Below, piece by piece: positions 42,760 through 54,522 of a DNA stretch of 64,000 bases (position 1 is its first letter; every line of letters starts with the position of its first letter). The notes beneath the pieces were generated by a model. That model searched no databases. It worked only from the letters and a program-made list of their open reading frames with translations, and had not been told where the DNA came from. Made by a program: the position numbers and the translations under genes. Origin of the DNA: a virus; IMG/VR virus record IMGVR_UViG_3300025929_000001, positions 31,418 to 95,417 of that record; one strand, 5' to 3'.

Positions 42760-45237
42760 CTAATTTTTACGGGCTGACTTAAGTTCCTTCTCTTCGGACG
42801 TAGACAGTGGAAGGTGCACTATGCGGAAGCTTCTACCGTGGAAGTTATAGTTCGTAACGCACTTGTCTTTTGCGTACTCCAACAAGTAACCGGAGTCGAT
42901 AAGCGACTTAATGGTCAGATCCAGCGCACTGTTCGCACCTTGTCTGTGGCCACTAAACGATGTAGTCCGTTGCAAGCTGATTTGCAAGTACTTGCGCGGA
43001 ACGATACCATCACGCCGCATCTGGTCGGTAACTTGATAGCTCTCCGGAATAGGCGACTTCAGGTACTTGGTCAAGACTGAGAGCATTTTCTTTTCACGTG
43101 CGGAGTCACCTGTACCCACGTCACCGGAACTAATGCGACGGCGCATAATTGCAATGTCTGCACGTATGAGGTCCAAAGCCCATTGAACATGGTAAGGTTG
43201 TATGACAGGAGCGACGTAGTTATCGCCCACGGCCAATAGGGCTGCAATGCGGAGCGCTTTGAGATGAGCACGATTCCACATCTGGCGCCAGCCTTCATCG
43301 TCGGTCTTATTAATTTGCTCATCACACTCCCGATCAAAGGCTGCTAGCATTGCATGCGCCGCAGACGAGCGCTCTACTTCCTGATTCGCGAACCTACCGT
43401 TAAGCTGGATAGCTTGCGCTGTTAGACCACACAACGCTTCCAGCAGATATTTATCCGGATGCTTTTGCGGGTTAGGATTAGCGGACGGTCTGTCACCTGC
43501 ATACTCGATTACCGTAAAGCGTGACAGGAAACCATCCTCCATCATGTTCTCGGTAAGCGCTTCGTAGAAGCCGCCTGGTGTAGACTCACCAATCATGCTG
43601 TAGGCTGCACCAGACACGCTAGCTACATTGTTTTCCTTGTTGCTGTACCCGATACCACCAACAATCGAGGCAGGACCAGACTTCTGATACAGGTTCGTCA
43701 TTACTGTGCGCAATGATTGCATCGGACCGTCGCGACCATCCTCGACCGCCAGGCGCTTAAGCTTGCGTCCCCACTCACCGGACACGTTAACGAACGACGG
43801 GTTTGCTGCAACTGCCTTAGACAGTGCAGGGCCCGACGCATAGTCGCTAAAGTCGATGAACTCAATTGCCTTGGGTATGCTGGAATTGACATGCGTCATC
43901 ACGTTAGCGATACCGCTATGCATTGCTTCCTTACCTACCGCTGACCGCGCGACGAGTACGATGTAGAGGTTAAGGCCTGACTGCGGTATAGAAAATGCTT
44001 TGCCACAAATTCCCGCCATGAGTCCGAGGGCACTGACAATCGCCACTTCTCGCACCGGTCGCGGTGCAGTCGAATATATGTACTCAGCGAGCGCGCCAAC
44101 CATACCCGGCGGCCATTCAAGGCTGGACGGTCTTGGGGTATTCTCCTCGTCGTCCGTACCCATACTATCATCTCCGCCTTCGTCAGCATAGGGCGCCGGC
44201 GTAGTAAGCTCCTCGGGGAACGGGATGGGTGTGCGCGGAACGGCGTAGAGGGGTACATTAGATGCTCCTGGAGGTGCGTTATACGCGGGTTGAACTTGCT
44301 GCGCTGGCATAGGTGCGTTTAACTTTGCTACGAGCGCGGCGCTAGTTGCAGCAGCATAGACGTCGACTTCTTCTTCAGACGCTTGGCGTCCCCGGATAAC
44401 AGACAGTATCCGGTTAAGTGCTACGTCGTTCTTTGTAGCCTTAGCACGTTCACCAAGCTTGGTCAGACGGAACATGCGACGGCATTGTTCGTTCGACTTG
44501 CTGTAGAATGCAAATATGGACATCAAGGCCAAGTCTGCTTCTGACTGCGACGGGTAGTCTGTTGTCCAGTTACCGCTACACAGTTGCACGAACTTGTCGC
44601 TGTTGTCAGCTTCCTTAGCACGCTCCCAAATTACTTCGTCGGGCTCTGTTGCTTCAACCTCGACCAGCGCGAACTTCTTTTGGTCGTCCGGCATTCCCTG
44701 CCTAATTTCAGCAACAAGGATATCAAGCAGTTCTTGTCGGGGTTGGATATCGCGCTGGAGATACACATCGCCCGTACAGACGATAAATCGTTCTTGAGAG
44801 TAAACCTCAACACCATCCCGCTTGAGCCCTTCACCGATCTTACCGCGTACCCAGATATGAAATCCTTGTCCGCTAGCAGAGCGTTCAGTATAGCTGTCAA
44901 ATGCGTGGATGATTCGATAAAAACGCTGAATGTGTTCTTCGGGAGTGTGCTTTGTGTGGTCAGGTTCGTTGAACTCATTTTTAATATCCAGATCAATACA
45001 AGTGTACGCGTCTTGTTTGCTTAGGATATAACCAATGCCGGCACCTTCGACGGTAGCAGCAGCTTCAATCGTTGTCTCAATGTCCTTCCAATGGAAACTT
45101 TGTGTAGGGCTGATGTGCATTAGTCCGCGTGGGCTTAAAACGTGCGGAGCTTTCATCTTGCCATACTGATCCGGGCCTGCAACAGCCCAATTCCTACCCC
45201 ACCGGAGTTCTTCCGGTATTTTGTCGTAGTCGACCAT
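42760..45237 (-). CDS. Primase-polymerase (NrS-1-like AEP) fused to a DUF3987-type helicase
   Basis: IDLD, ERS.SG.G.HIW, EVYS..RF and SQSEADLAL motifs; C-terminal ARSAVGKE P-loop and DGFLSRF. Confidence 0.85.
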   Translation of the reverse strand: MVDYDKIPEELRWGRNWAVAGPDQYGKMKAPHVLSPRGLMHISPTQSFHWKDIETTIEAAATVEGAGIGYILSKQDAYTCIDLDIKNEFNEPDHTKHTPEEHIQRFYRIIHAFDSYTERSASGQGFHIWVRGKIGEGLKRDGVEVYSQERFIVCTGDVYLQRDIQPRQELLDILVAEIRQGMPDDQKKFALVEVEATEPDEVIWERAKEADNSDKFVQLCSGNWTTDYPSQSEADLALMSIFAFYSKSNEQCRRMFRLTKLGERAKATKNDVALNRILSVIRGRQASEEEVDVYAAATSAALVAKLNAPMPAQQVQPAYNAPPGASNVPLYAVPRTPIPFPEELTTPAPYADEGGDDSMGTDDEENTPRPSSLEWPPGMVGALAEYIYSTAPRPVREVAIVSALGLMAGICGKAFSIPQSGLNLYIVLVARSAVGKEAMHSGIANVMTHVNSSIPKAIEFIDFSDYASGPALSKAVAANPSFVNVSGEWGRKLKRLAVEDGRDGPMQSLRTVMTNLYQKSGPASIVGGIGYSNKENNVASVSGAAYSMIGESTPGGFYEALTENMMEDGFLSRFTVIEYAGDRPSANPNPQKHPDKYLLEALCGLTAQAIQLNGRFANQEVERSSAAHAMLAAFDRECDEQINKTDDEGWRQMWNRAHLKALRIAALLAVGDNYVAPVIQPYHVQWALDLIRADIAIMRRRISSGDVGTGDSAREKKMLSVLTKYLKSPIPESYQVTDQMRRDGIVPRKYLQISLQRTTSFSGHRQGANSALDLTIKSLIDSGYLLEYAKDKCVTNYNFHGRSFRIVHLPLSTSEEKELKSARKN

Positions 45238-47121: not shown

Positions 47122-47389
47122 CGACTTGCTCCTGTAAAGGTTGGATTGCAAATTCTCCGGTCTTAGAAAGACGCCGCCATTGAAGCTGCGTAACTTCGTC
47201 CGGTACTGATGGATATGGCATGTACGCGTCATAAAACTTATGACTTTCGGACGTCCATATTACTTCTACTATCTTGCGCCCATGGTTGAGCGCAAATACC
47301 CTGCTACCCGGACTTGGCGGCTCGTTGCCAGCAAGCGGGATTAAAGAACATGATTGTGCAACAATGCGCTTTATGATCAGGTCGTTCAT
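47084..47389 (-). CDS. Hypothetical protein
   Basis: ATGA-coupled to radC. Confidence 0.55.
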   Translation of the reverse strand: MNDLIIKRIVAQSCSLIPLAGNEPPSPGSRVFALNHGRKIVEVIWTSESHKFYDAYMPYPSVPDEVTQLQWRRLSKTGEFAIQPLQEQVDETQTLQPHDRP

Positions 47390-47862
47390 ATTTCTCCGTG
47401 ATCTGAAAAAGAATACGTGTGCGTCCCTGCGACAATGACGTGGTCGACAATTGCACAGTTGACTATGCTTAGCGCTTCCTGTAGCTTGCGCGTAAGTTCG
47501 TGATCTGCCAAGCTTGGAGTGGATTCGCCGCTTGGGTGATTGTGGTAGATAACCACATTGTTCGCGTTGTACTTGAGTGCTTCTTTCACAACCTCGCGCG
47601 GATACACGTTTACGTGACCGAGCGTGCCGCGAAATAACAGTACGTCGACTATCAGCTTATTGCGCATGTCCAGGAACAATGCGCCGAAAGCTTCGTAAGG
47701 TAGTTCTGCCAGACGTAACGTCAAATACTTCTTAACGTTATCCGCAGCACCGAGAGCAATCCCGGGCGTGCGTAGCCGGTGTTCCAGTATGCGCAATGCT
47801 TCGTTGATGTAATACTCCTCAAGCAACGGTTGCGATACTGGTTCGGTAGTGGTAGGGTTCAT
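47386..47862 (-). CDS. radC: RadC-like JAB/MPN domain protein
   Basis: E.F..LFLD.RN.L, GTL..V.VYPREV.K.AL, HNHPSG...PS.AD and DHVIV motifs. Confidence 0.9.
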   Translation of the reverse strand: MNPTTTEPVSQPLLEEYYINEALRILEHRLRTPGIALGAADNVKKYLTLRLAELPYEAFGALFLDMRNKLIVDVLLFRGTLGHVNVYPREVVKEALKYNANNVVIYHNHPSGESTPSLADHELTRKLQEALSIVNCAIVDHVIVAGTHTYSFSDHGEI

Positions 47863-48134: not shown

Positions 48135-48294
48135 GATATTTCTCCTAAATGAACCTTCTGAACTCCATCTGCTAAACGTGCGTTTATAGCGTTTATTTTA
48201 GCACATAGGGGGTAGGGTGCAAGCGCTTAAATTTGCGTGCGGTAGGGTGTTTAAAACGGGTTAAAAGCGATAGTTTTACGGGGTTAAACCCCAA

Positions 48295-48361
48295 CCAGAC
48301 AGGGTCCGTAAAGACCCTGTTTCGTCTAATTAATAGATGTAATTAATAGACTCATCAGTGG
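48295..48361 (-). ncRNA. Type I hammerhead ribozyme HH-A (cleavage GUC| between 48298 and 48297)
   Basis: CCA-CUGAUGA-[GUCUAUUAAU uacaucu AUUAA u UAGAC]-GAAA-[CAGGGUC uuuacg GACCCUG]-UC|UGG. The core is intact but stem I is short. Confidence 0.85.
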
Positions 48362-49461
48362 GACTGTTGCTGCGAATCGATTTCGGACAGCGTGCTAAGC
48401 AAGACACCGATGTTGCCTCGGACTTTCTCGAACTTAAGGTTCGCAGCCTTCAATGCTTCTTCGTGCTTGTGCGGAATCATGTTGACCATTAACAAAACCC
48501 GATCCGCACTAGCTGCCATGCTTTTGAGCTTGTGGACCGATTCGTCAGTGTGGTAAAAGGTCAGCTTAAACTTATCGCCGAACTTATCCTTTACTTCTTC
48601 AATGTGTATGGACTTAAGTAGTCCTGCGACGACTATCTTTTGTTTGCTAACAGTCGGTTCCATGGCTACCCCGATCGGGTTGTGTCTGATTGGACTTCGA
48701 TTGTGCGTCTGTGGGCGTAACATGTCTTGTACCTCCGATGATTTGAGAATGTCTAGTACGTTAACCTTAAATCGGTCAGCGAGTTTGTCCAGCAATGCGT
48801 CCAGCAATTGACCTGCGGTAAAGTCTGCCGGTGTAGCAGCTAGCGCGAGCGCTACAGGTTCCGTTATAGCTGGTGCGGGCTCCGGTACGCTGGCAGCAAC
48901 AAGGTCCACCATGTCTGCAAGCCAGTGCGCGTTGACCTTAATGTTCCCGATTGGAATGCGCCGCCTGTCTTCTGCCAAACATGATGCCTGGGCTTGGTCG
49001 AGCGCCTGGCTTAAGCTTACGAACGGTTGCTTCCTGCGGATAACCGCAACCTCATGCGCAAGCGTGATGCGCTCGTCGTGTGACCACACAATCTTAGGCT
49101 TCCGTCCCTTGATACCTTCAGGAACTTCTCGAACGACCGGTGTAGTCAGTTCGACGCTAGGTGTAGGTTGAAGCGGCCCTACGAACTCGGGCACGTCCGG
49201 TTGCTTTAACCGATACTTGTAAGCCCGCTGACCACCTGACTTATCGACTTCTAATGTGTGGTTATTAACCAGCATCTGAATTCGATTAGCCACCATCTTC
49301 TTATCATACGTAGAGCAGACATCCATTATATCAGCAGACTTTGCCCAGAGGTTAGCGGTGTTATTGAACATGTCAATGATCAGTTTACCTACCTGCGAAC
49401 GGGCTTCCGTCTGCGACTCGCTTACTACCATGCGAGCGTGTTGTATCTCTATGTTGTTCAT
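48355..49461 (-). CDS. Multidomain hypothetical protein (N-terminal winged-helix-like, C-terminal DUF2325-like alpha/beta)
   Basis: 368 aa; AGGAG RBS; the stop codon is the UGA of the hammerhead core. Confidence 0.7.
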   Translation of the reverse strand: MNNIEIQHARMVVSESQTEARSQVGKLIIDMFNNTANLWAKSADIMDVCSTYDKKMVANRIQMLVNNHTLEVDKSGGQRAYKYRLKQPDVPEFVGPLQPTPSVELTTPVVREVPEGIKGRKPKIVWSHDERITLAHEVAVIRRKQPFVSLSQALDQAQASCLAEDRRRIPIGNIKVNAHWLADMVDLVAASVPEPAPAITEPVALALAATPADFTAGQLLDALLDKLADRFKVNVLDILKSSEVQDMLRPQTHNRSPIRHNPIGVAMEPTVSKQKIVVAGLLKSIHIEEVKDKFGDKFKLTFYHTDESVHKLKSMAASADRVLLMVNMIPHKHEEALKAANLKFEKVRGNIGVLLSTLSEIDSQQQSH

Positions 49462-49470
49462 TGCTGTCTC

Positions 49471-49746
49471 CTAGTTCAAACGGGTTATCTTGGCAAACTT
49501 ACCTTGTTCCATGCTCCAGAAGTTGCCGTTTATCATGGAGCCGGCGTCGTTCTTAGCGAACGCTGCGGGTGCTAACGCTTGCTGATCTTCCAGCCCTTCC
49601 AGAACCAACTGCACTTCGCTGACGAAGGTGTCAGTACGTTCGCATATCAGCTTGGGGACGTTGCGGTGTATCTGGTATATGCGAGCCGTTTTATATAACG
49701 AGTCACCCTTCTTGGTTTCGTAGTAGGTATAGACGAAGTGTTTCAT
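49471..49746 (-). CDS. Hypothetical protein
   Basis: AGGAG RBS. Confidence 0.65.
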   Translation of the reverse strand: MKHFVYTYYETKKGDSLYKTARIYQIHRNVPKLICERTDTFVSEVQLVLEGLEDQQALAPAAFAKNDAGSMINGNFWSMEQGKFAKITRLN

Positions 49747-49767: not shown

Positions 49768-49796
49768 AAAAACCCCGGCAAACATCACCGGGGCTT
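49768..49796 (-). terminator. Intrinsic terminator
   Basis: GCCCCGGUGA-ugu-UUGCCGGGGU-UUUU on the - strand. Confidence 0.75.
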
Positions 49797-49814: not shown

Positions 49815-50330
49815 TTAAGATTGCTGGCCTTGCTTGGCAAGCTCGTCGAACTTTTCCGCAATCACACCTTGCAGACCATCGTAGCAGCCGTCGACATACT
49901 CGGCGGTTTGGATGCCTTGGTCAGCTTGGCCGCCAGCGACGTCGATTTCGCGGAACAGGATTGCAGCCAGTGCAAGCTGGGCGATGCCGGCTTCCATTAT
50001 CTGGTTTGCAAAGAACATGCGTGCATCCTGTCCTTGCGCCGGTTGGGCCGCTTGTTGTGTCGCTTGGGTTTGCGCTGGCGCGGTTTGAGCTTGTTGCGCA
50101 ACGGCTGCGCCACCCTGCTCCCCGCCAAGGGTTTCAGCGAGGTCGCCGTTGCTTTGCTCATTCCCGTTCTGACCGCCGGTGTTCGTAACGTTACCGATGC
50201 GACCGTCGGTGGCCGGGTCAGTAACTCGACCACGACCATCGCTACCCTGATTGGTTTGCTTGGCCTGAGTGGGCTGTGCTGCGCCCTGGCGGGTTTGATT
50301 TGAACGACCGCGAGTGCCTGTTGTTGCCAT
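49815..50330 (-). CDS. Gln/Gly-rich low-complexity protein with a helical C-terminus
   Basis: AGGAGCAATATC-ATG at 50330; lies 37 nt downstream of the HH-B cleavage site. Confidence 0.7.
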   Translation of the reverse strand: MATTGTRGRSNQTRQGAAQPTQAKQTNQGSDGRGRVTDPATDGRIGNVTNTGGQNGNEQSNGDLAETLGGEQGGAAVAQQAQTAPAQTQATQQAAQPAQGQDARMFFANQIMEAGIAQLALAAILFREIDVAGGQADQGIQTAEYVDGCYDGLQGVIAEKFDELAKQGQQS

Positions 50331-50362: not shown

Positions 50363-50438
50363 CCGCATACACAATAAGCCCGCGTGTAAGGCGAGCTATT
50401 GTGTTTCGTCCGAGAACCACTCGGACTCATCAGTGCGG
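50363..50438 (-). ncRNA. Type I hammerhead ribozyme HH-B (cleavage GUA| between 50368 and 50367)
   Basis: CCGCA-CUGAUGA-[GUCCGAG ugguu CUCGGAC]-GAAA-[CACAAUAGCUCGC cuuacac GCGGGCU u AUUGUG]-UA|UGCGG. Confidence 0.93.
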
Positions 50439-51378: not shown

Positions 51379-51443
51379 ACTGCTGACGTAGACCTTAAGT
51401 GTCTGGGTCTACGTTTCGGATCATTAATCCTCATCAGAGCAGT
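51379..51443 (-). ncRNA. Type I hammerhead ribozyme HH-C (cleavage GUC| between 51385 and 51384)
   Basis: ACUGCU-CUGAUGA-[GGAU uaaug AUCC]-GAAA-[CGUAGACC cagacacuuaa GGUCUACG]-UC|AGCAGU. Confidence 0.94.
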
Positions 51444-51444
51444 T

Positions 51445-51726
51445 CTATGAATGAAACTCGTACTCGGCTTTCGGGGCACGCTGAATGCATCCCATAGTCA
51501 GGCGGAAGTCTGTGTGATAGCGGATGTTAATGATCCACTCCAGCCACCCTGGATGCTTGTAAGCAGGCGCATCTGCGGGGACGCGCTCTTGCGGGTAGAT
51601 GTCTATAAGCTTCGCGCATTTGACGTGCTGCGCTACGCGAGCTAAGACAGCTTCCAGCATCTGCTGATCCAGTTCCCAACCGAGAACGTTGTGAATGTTA
51701 ATCTGGCAGGTTTTATCTTGACTCAT
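51445..51726 (-). CDS. Hypothetical protein
   Basis: AGGAG RBS; the TAG stop lies 1 nt before HH-C stem I. Confidence 0.65.
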   Translation of the reverse strand: MSQDKTCQINIHNVLGWELDQQMLEAVLARVAQHVKCAKLIDIYPQERVPADAPAYKHPGWLEWIINIRYHTDFRLTMGCIQRAPKAEYEFHS

Positions 51727-53113: not shown

Positions 53114-53452
53114 TTAATGCAGAGTTGGCCGGTCAGCTAGCACTTCCGTCAGTGCGTCGTGCCGCGCTTCTTGTTGGGTCATTTCTGCATTGTACTCCTC
53201 GTGCGTATCGGCTAAGAACCCTTCGCTGGTGTAGTTGACACCGAGTTCATCCGTTGGGATGTTCTGGAAACAACCGAACAGCGGGGAGTTCGTAAAAAGC
53301 TGACCGTTAGGCCCTGGCTTTGCTGCCCAATACGGTTCCCAGAAATTGTCCGGGTTGTCGTCGAACTTGTCCTCGTTAAACAAGATCAACAAACCGCGAT
53401 CCAGAGCAGCTTTTGCCCAGGCCATTTGGTCTGTGTAGCGATGGATTGCCAT
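53114..53452 (-). CDS. Hypothetical protein (paralog of 60353..60700)
   Basis: AGGAG RBS; shared residue pattern. Confidence 0.65.
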   Translation of the reverse strand: MAIHRYTDQMAWAKAALDRGLLILFNEDKFDDNPDNFWEPYWAAKPGPNGQLFTNSPLFGCFQNIPTDELGVNYTSEGFLADTHEEYNAEMTQQEARHDALTEVLADRPTLH

Positions 53453-53467
53453 TTTGTTGTGCTCCTA

Positions 53468-53496
53468 AAAATGGGCTGACCATACAGCGCCAGCCC
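53468..53496 (-). terminator. Possible weak terminator hairpin
   Basis: GGGCUGGC-gcuguaug-GUCAGCCC-AUUUUU. Confidence 0.45.
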
Positions 53497-53507
53497 GTGG
53501 TTGATAC

Positions 53508-53837
53508 TTAGCAATTCACATAGTGTACCGGGCTGCGCACTACCAGATCCTCTGGCAGCTTAATGCCAACCAGCGGCAGATAGGCACGCGGCTTACGACC
53601 GAAGAAGTCAACCCTGCGGTGCGGTTCGAACTCCGCGGTTGCGATTTCATCCACTCGGCGCACCTCGACGATGGTACCGTCGCTGTCCCGTCCGATAATG
53701 TAATCGGGCAGTCCTTTCTTGACGCGCTTGTCCCGGCTGAACGGGTTAGCGACCCATGATTGCTGAACGCGCCCTGTTTGGTACACGTTAACAATGATGC
53801 AGCGCTGGCTAAGTAAATCACTTAATAGCTTAGGCAT
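53508..53837 (-). CDS. Hypothetical protein
   Basis: GGAG RBS. Confidence 0.6.
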   Translation of the reverse strand: MPKLLSDLLSQRCIIVNVYQTGRVQQSWVANPFSRDKRVKKGLPDYIIGRDSDGTIVEVRRVDEIATAEFEPHRRVDFFGRKPRAYLPLVGIKLPEDLVVRSPVHYVNC

Positions 53838-53854
53838 AATAAATACTCCGGTTA

Positions 53855-53919
53855 CGGGCAAAGCGCCCGCGATAACCACACTGGTGAGTTGTGGATTGTG
53901 TGGTTATCACTGGTGCTTT
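53855..53919 (-). promoter_or_regulatory. RNase III-like processing stem with a switchable 5' hairpin
   Basis: AAAGC-acca-[GUGAUAACCACAC/GUGUGGUUAUCGC]-gggc-GCUUU; alternative hairpin CGGGC-GCUUU-GCCCG. Confidence 0.7.
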
Positions 53920-53922
53920 AGG

Positions 53923-54522
53923 TCAGATTTGACCTTTGTATTCTACTTCCCAAATTTCTGCCATGCGAGTTGCTACTTGGTAACAGAAATCTTGCTCGCT
54001 GAAACCGTAGATAGTGTCGTGCGGATTATTGCGCAAACTAGACAGGTATCCTGCGTAGAAGTCGACGTCGCTGAAGCTATTCTTAGCAGCGTCCTGTTCT
54101 TGGGTAATGCGCTTGACAATAAAGAACTTCAGATATTGCTGCGCGTTGTGTTCGACTTCAACCAGATGGCTTAATTGGCGCTGCACTTGCTCGGAGACAG
54201 CGCTGGCAAACTGCATACCATCGCCGCTCATAAGCTCATTGTGCACCCATGTTTCGTGATACTGGCTGGTTGGTCCGATGTGTTCTGGGTTGCCTTTGCA
54301 TTCCGCCCATTGTTTGGCAGACAACCATTCCGCGGTTGCTTCGACCATGCGCTCGTAAGCAGCTTCGACCGGGTCCATGTCTTCAGTTCGTTTGGAATCG
54401 TCCACTTGGCAGTACCCTGGAATGAATTGGGCTGCTGTTTCTACCATAGCAGCCATGACAGCTTTGTCTTCCTTAGTTGGGATTGGAGATACTTTGAAAG
54501 GACGCTTTTTGTTGTCAGACAT
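53923..54522 (-). CDS. Hypothetical protein
   Basis: AGGAGCAATATC-ATG. Confidence 0.65.
   Translation of the reverse strand: MSDNKKRPFKVSPIPTKEDKAVMAAMVETAAQFIPGYCQVDDSKRTEDMDPVEAAYERMVEATAEWLSAKQWAECKGNPEHIGPTSQYHETWVHNELMSGDGMQFASAVSEQVQRQLSHLVEVEHNAQQYLKFFIVKRITQEQDAAKNSFSDVDFYAGYLSSLRNNPHDTIYGFSEQDFCYQVATRMAEIWEVEYKGQI

Follow-up and report, generated by a model that had tools for sequence, protein, structure and literature searches.

We examined a 64,000-nt window comprising bases 31418–95417 of a 95,417-bp IMG/VR record from an uncultured phage that carries direct terminal repeats and was judged complete. Within a block of small genes on the minus strand lies an open reading frame (ORF) of 368 amino acids with an ATG start (48355..49461, minus strand); its product is without functional assignment, falling in no PHROG family and matching DUF2325 at a sub-threshold level. 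The 3′ end of this ORF runs into a type I hammerhead motif, here termed HH-A (48295..48361, minus strand), which we delineated from its sequence, its fold, and a custom covariance model.

HH-A consists of three helices arranged around a core; loops cap stems II and III, and stem I is open-ended. On the minus strand, stem I pairs 48361–48359 (CCA) with 48297–48295 (UGG), giving 3 bp, and is followed by the core CUGAUGA at 48358–48352. Stem II (48351–48324) comprises approximately 10 bp, is AU-rich with one bulged U, and is much longer than usual. It is followed by G12, A13, and A14 (48323–48321, within the GAAA at 48323–48320) and by stem III, in which 48319–48313 pairs with 48306–48300 over 7–8 bp. 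The GUC at 48300–48298 supplies C17 (48298), placing the predicted cut between 48298 and 48297. Every element of the invariant core is present: CUGAUGA, the G48351–C48324 pair (G10.1–C11.1), GAA, the A48320–U48299 pair (A15.1–U16.1), and C48298 (H17). From this sequence we consider HH-A a probable self-cutting type I hammerhead, for which cleavage is predicted.

The minus strand at the end of the ORF reads UCC (48363–48361), CAC (48360–48358), UGA (48357–48355), UGA (48354–48352), and G (48351), followed by UCU. The 368-aa ORF terminates at the first UGA, and both UGAs (48352..48357) fall within the invariant CUGAUGA. The last two codons furnish the 5′ strand of stem I (C48361, C48360, and A48359) as well as C3 of the core. 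A preliminary description of this DNA had reported an ORF ending in UCC CAC UGA UGA G with its stop embedded in the core, and had noted that the CCA strand of stem I is coding; the first account is exact in both coordinates and wording, and the second holds, as all three nucleotides lie inside the ORF. The same description singled out a tandem stop. A second in-frame UGA does exist; however, it is inherent in the CUGAUGA sequence and thus adds nothing independent of the core. The predicted cut lies 57 nt 3′ of the ORF stop, so the upstream message retains its stop codon whether cut or uncut.

Neighboring hammerheads and genomic setting

Two further type I hammerheads lie nearby on the minus strand. 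HH-B (50363..50438) has a stem I of 5 bp and a GUA with a predicted cut after 50368; the UAA of its upstream gene (50442–50440) ends 1 nt ahead of the 5′ strand of stem I (50438–50434). HH-C (51379..51443) has a stem I of 6 bp and a GUC with a predicted cut after 51385, and here too the upstream stop, a UAG at 51447–51445, lies 1 nt ahead of the 5′ strand of stem I (51443–51438). These spacings bear out an earlier observation that HH-B and HH-C begin within a ribosome footprint of their upstream stops. For both, the minimum-energy fold is a three-way junction.

Just downstream of the hammerhead block is a gene for a RadC-like JAB protein (47386–47862, minus strand; PF04002, E = 2e-37), and further along in the direction of transcription is a large DNA primase (42760–45237; PHROG 3022, E = 1.6e-222). 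A strong terminator-like hairpin, with 12 pairs followed by a U-run, occupies 49770–49796 on the minus strand, between the gene at 49815–50330, which follows HH-B, and that at 49471–49746; the three hammerheads may therefore not all share one transcript.

A comparable cluster occurs in an unrelated 78-kb phage fragment, IMGVR_UViG_3300033979_000663 (L141:870-1760), which has three hammerheads within 0.9 kb (bases 53264–54128) and is without a homologue of the 368-aa protein. Two of its hammerheads match HH-B exactly in core and stem II (CTGATGAGTCCGAGTGGTTCTCGGACGAAAC) and are located in a repeat of ~204 nt. This identity suggests, at the level of sequence, that hammerhead modules may move between phages.

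Hammerhead matches relative to chance

We compared the occurrence of hammerhead-like sequences with chance expectation using patterns of increasing stringency. A loose hammerhead pattern produced 19 overlapping matches against 2.4 expected, with the real ones at three minus-strand sites. A stricter core pattern occurred three times in the whole 95,417-bp genome, on one strand and within 3.1 kb. A structural descriptor requiring the core, U-H, and a minimum of 3 bp in each of stems I, II, and III likewise identified three minus-strand sites, and found none in 300 dinucleotide-preserving shuffles.

We also built a covariance model from 70 non-redundant type I hammerheads drawn from other IMG/VR contigs. 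Applied to both strands of the 64 kb, this model scored HH-A at 29.4 bits (E = 4e-6), HH-B at 40.2 bits (E = 2e-9), and HH-C at 25.2 bits (E = 7.5e-5), and a search of the whole genome again returned only these three. A scan of the whole window at Rfam gathering thresholds gave no matches. Under permissive settings, HH-A reached 23.4 bits with RF03152 (gathering score 56.3) and 16.9 bits with RF00163 (gathering score 34). HH-B and HH-C likewise score below the Rfam gathering thresholds, a sign that this phage group is poorly captured by the Rfam models.

The upstream gene and its relatives

The 368-aa ORF has one close relative, protein P0002 from a Logan assembly, which is also 368 aa in length and shares 62% identity with its product. 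The alignment extends to the last residue, and the ORF is real. Both proteins end in His despite a diverged tail (...IDSQQQSH in one and ...IKS---VH in the other, in the comparison with P0002). A shared terminal His is the pattern that would be expected were CAC UGA UGA kept, in what is a single case at the protein level.

Searches of IMG/VR, JGI metagenome, and GTDB genome contigs returned no relative of the 368-aa protein, and blastn against the phage collection gave no match to the locus. A DNA pattern specific to HH-A had no match in IMG/VR and, in JGI contigs, recovered one unrelated type III hammerhead only. Through the primase we identified four related phage fragments (45–55% identity), in the recovered parts of which there was no hammerhead. 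Weak matches to the custom model in these primase-related fragments were rejected as false; they sit within helicase-like coding sequence.

Stem I and the sequence downstream of HH-A

Stem I of HH-A is short, with 3 contiguous pairs by inspection and likewise only 3 in the custom-model alignment. Among 182 comparator hammerheads, described below, this helix has 3 contiguous pairs in 1, 4 in 21, 5 in 43, and 6 in 106, and thus at least 5 in 160. The non-coding 3′ strand of stem I, though free to change, does not match GUCCCA. By inspection we found no loop–loop or loop–bulge complementarity that would indicate a tertiary contact between stems I and II of HH-A, a type of contact that nearest-neighbor folds cannot score.

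Downstream of the predicted cut, the RNA starts UGGUUGGGGUUUAACCCC..., and the opening segment of the predicted 3′ product (48270..48297, minus strand) can fold into the hairpin GGGGU-UUA-ACCCC. The 3′ strand of stem I lies within UGGUU, which in the minimum-energy fold pairs with AACUA further down, so that the downstream hairpin competes with the 3-bp stem I. Nearest-neighbor folding favors the hairpin that sequesters this strand; since it also does so for the well-formed HH-B, the result is not decisive. We dropped the thermodynamic fraction of active fold as a test, since in the nearest-neighbor model it is equally tiny for HH-B.

HH-A is not tightly packed on its 3′ side. Between it and the next start codon (48134) are 160 nt of untranslated sequence (48135–48294, minus strand), which are AT-rich, contain repeated TTTAA and TAAAA tracts, and far exceed the 28-nt median gap of phage hammerheads. 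A weak sigma-70-like match lies in or near this gap, at 48162–48133.

Taken at face value, these features could mean that HH-A is a decaying or inactive hammerhead, persisting as a structured 3′ element made of the stem II and stem III hairpins or as a relic. We regard this as unlikely. It would account for the outlying length of stem I, of which the custom model aligns the same 3 pairs, for the scores under Rfam thresholds, for the thermodynamic advantage of the competing hairpin, and for the failure to find a relative of HH-A in IMG/VR or JGI contigs. Yet the core nucleotides, the G10.1–C11.1 and A15.1–U16.1 pairs, and the GUC are all intact, which would be unexpected after long neutral decay. 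Moreover, a three-nucleotide helix I is reported to be sufficient for a hammerhead acting in trans, according to a title cited in PMC1995221 (Tabler et al. 1994). Because a 3-bp stem I is unusual, yet a helix of this length is, by that title, sufficient in trans, we consider activity of HH-A plausible but uncertain.

Stop codons at phage hammerheads

To place the arrangement at HH-A in context, we surveyed 182 unique type I hammerheads from 135 IMG/VR loci, in two independent samples with different stem II sequences. The stop of the nearest upstream ORF with a minimum of 60 aa falls at −12 to +1 relative to the core C in 55.5% of the 182, compared with 3.2% at random same-strand positions. The spacer from upstream stop to first stem I pair has a median of 0 nt (182 hammerheads, loci L020–L257), and stops inside stem I, at offset −6, are rare. 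On the 3′ side, the median gap from stem I to the next start is 28 nt. The two sides vary together: the 5′ side is tight in 73% of hammerheads with a 3′ gap of at most 40 nt and in 48% of those with a longer one (p = 0.004). Flush 5′ placement thus accompanies flush 3′ placement, as expected from gene packing.

The core UGA is itself the stop of an upstream ORF of at least 60 aa in 26 of the 182 hammerheads (14.3%), with similar fractions in the two samples (11/79, 14%, and 15/103, 15%). Any TGA on the same strands ends such an ORF in 4.1% of cases (p = 1.5e-8 for the difference). ORFs in the survey were called mechanically at a minimum of 60 codons, such that a few percent are possibly spurious and about 4% of the 14% could be noise. 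HH-B provides an example, in that a spurious 75-aa ORF in another frame ends on its core UGA and the genuine gene, of 270 aa, has its UAA stop 9 nt upstream; mechanical calls can therefore inflate stop-in-core counts. In 25 of the 26 cases, no competing ORF of greater length ends within 150 nt upstream. Where an ORF extends into the ribozyme, it terminates at the core UGA in 26 instances and continues past it in 8 (p = 3e-7 against one third). The stop-in-core overlap at HH-A is therefore not special; it is a common layout in phage hammerheads.

Discussion

We propose that HH-A is a type I hammerhead, one of three in a cluster, in which the stop codon came to lie in the core through flush packing against the upstream gene and any masking by ribosomes is a side effect; we place the probability of this reading at roughly 0.68. 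The invariant CUGAUGA would offer an in-frame UGA, and a second UGA behind it, to any ORF arriving in that frame. Flush packing of phage hammerheads against the gene ahead of them would bring a stop codon into the core in this way. HH-A would sit in an early or replication-side operon of the 95-kb phage, where its most likely role, as presumed for other clustered phage hammerheads, is to cleave a long transcript between genes. The 5′ product would hold the 368-aa gene, stop codon intact, and terminate in the hairpins of stems II and III, and the 3′ product would begin with a 5′-OH beside a hairpin.

A ribosome with a stop codon in its A site covers approximately 12–15 nt 3′ of the P-site codon. 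With UGA 48357–48355 in the A site, this footprint takes in all of CUGAUGA together with the 5′ strand of stem I before it and the first part of stem II after it, and HH-A would be unfolded for that time. Judging from geometry and footprint size, a terminating ribosome would transiently mask the core of HH-A and, likewise, HH-B and HH-C. A stop footprint over folding elements is also found at 55% of the surveyed phage hammerheads. The preliminary description had proceeded from occlusion of the core by a terminating ribosome to a translation-gated ribozyme. Its first step agrees with the geometry, but the second is not supported, given that the overlap recurs in ~14% of phage hammerheads, that packing accounts for it, and that the predicted cleavage site is 57 nt 3′ of the stop. 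Masking is an unavoidable side effect and no demonstrated control device, and packing explains the layout without gating.

A gated ribozyme nevertheless deserves consideration. Under this proposal, ribosome traffic over the stop in the core sets the extent of HH-A cutting and, with it, transcript processing and stability; the 3-bp stem I and the competitor hairpin predicted downstream could heighten sensitivity, and the passage of one ribosome might hand over the 3′ strand of stem I. The geometry of the overlap fits such a scheme, as does the fact that HH-A, HH-B, and HH-C all start within the footprint of upstream stops. In addition, 48% of phage hammerheads with a long 3′ gap are still flush with the stop, against 3% at random. 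Among homologous upstream proteins, the overlap is retained in one family at 41% identity, and P0002 keeps its terminal His amid a diverging tail; however, the UGA is fixed by the invariance of the core, so that a conserved overlap would be expected even without gating, and in another homologous pair, at 40% identity, the stop lies at −13 in one member and at +1 in the other. The layout, moreover, correlates with general packing, and termination is probably brief relative to typical ribozyme half-times. On balance, we find gating quite improbable.

A more specific form of the idea holds that HH-A is kinetically fragile, that cutting is confined to the interval before the first ribosome terminates, and that flush placement is a selected coupling device. 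If so, the fraction of transcripts cut would report translation of the 368-aa gene. We view this version as a long shot. That the locus is simply an ordinary gene end with a chance resemblance to a hammerhead, for which the lack of an Rfam match at gathering thresholds might be cited, is so improbable that it can be set aside, given that 0 of 300 shuffles match the descriptor, that an independent model returns E = 4e-6, and that the same strand carries two more hammerheads inside 3.1 kb, the rest of the 95 kb having none.

Phage hammerheads recurrently lie flush against, or overlap, upstream stops, a regularity both simple and testable. The literature we searched contains no discussion of such placement: PMC3088659 makes no mention of stop codons, overlaps, or translation, and PMC6765202 makes none of stop codons. 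If ribosomes set cleavage, these hammerheads would be natural translation sensors; if they do not, the pattern documents how an invariant RNA core shares sequence with coding regions in compact genomes. The HH-A locus adds one more example and, with its unusually short stem I, a variant that is a good test case. What the thousands of hammerheads in bacteria and phages do biologically is still to be defined; a 2019 review (PMC6765202) calls for more work and lists the processing of polycistronic transcripts as a suggested but unproven function.

Among known systems, the nearest are the clustered hammerheads that flank genes in phages and prophages, shown by Perreault et al. 2011 (PMC3088659) to self-cleave both in vitro and in E. 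coli. As in those clusters, several hammerheads with a canonical core are spaced here between the genes of a phage operon, all on one strand, and the presumed role, cutting of polycistronic RNA, is shared. HH-A differs in its unusually short stem I and its long, AU-rich stem II. The best Rfam alignments, to the RAGATH-1 hammerhead (RF03152) and Hammerhead type I (RF00163), have the core and helix order seen in HH-A, but HH-A shows no convincing counterpart of the additional 5′ hairpin of RAGATH-1. The 26 stop-in-core hammerheads of our survey resemble HH-A in using the core UGA as the upstream stop and in having a coding 5′ strand of stem I; they differ in that their stem I is mostly 6 bp (17/26), compared with 3 bp in HH-A, which also has a long 3′ gap (160 nt). 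In rodent Clec2 3′ UTRs, a discontinuous hammerhead that Martick et al. reportedly described in 2008 is said to have a strand starting right after the mRNA stop codon. HH-A would share with it a hammerhead strand near a stop codon and differ in its phage operon setting, as the Clec2 ribozyme is, by that account, eukaryotic, is built from two distant segments, and affects the 3′ UTR and polyadenylation rather than operon processing. In sum, HH-A joins a known class, the clustered phage hammerheads, as an ordinary member whose stem I is atypically short.
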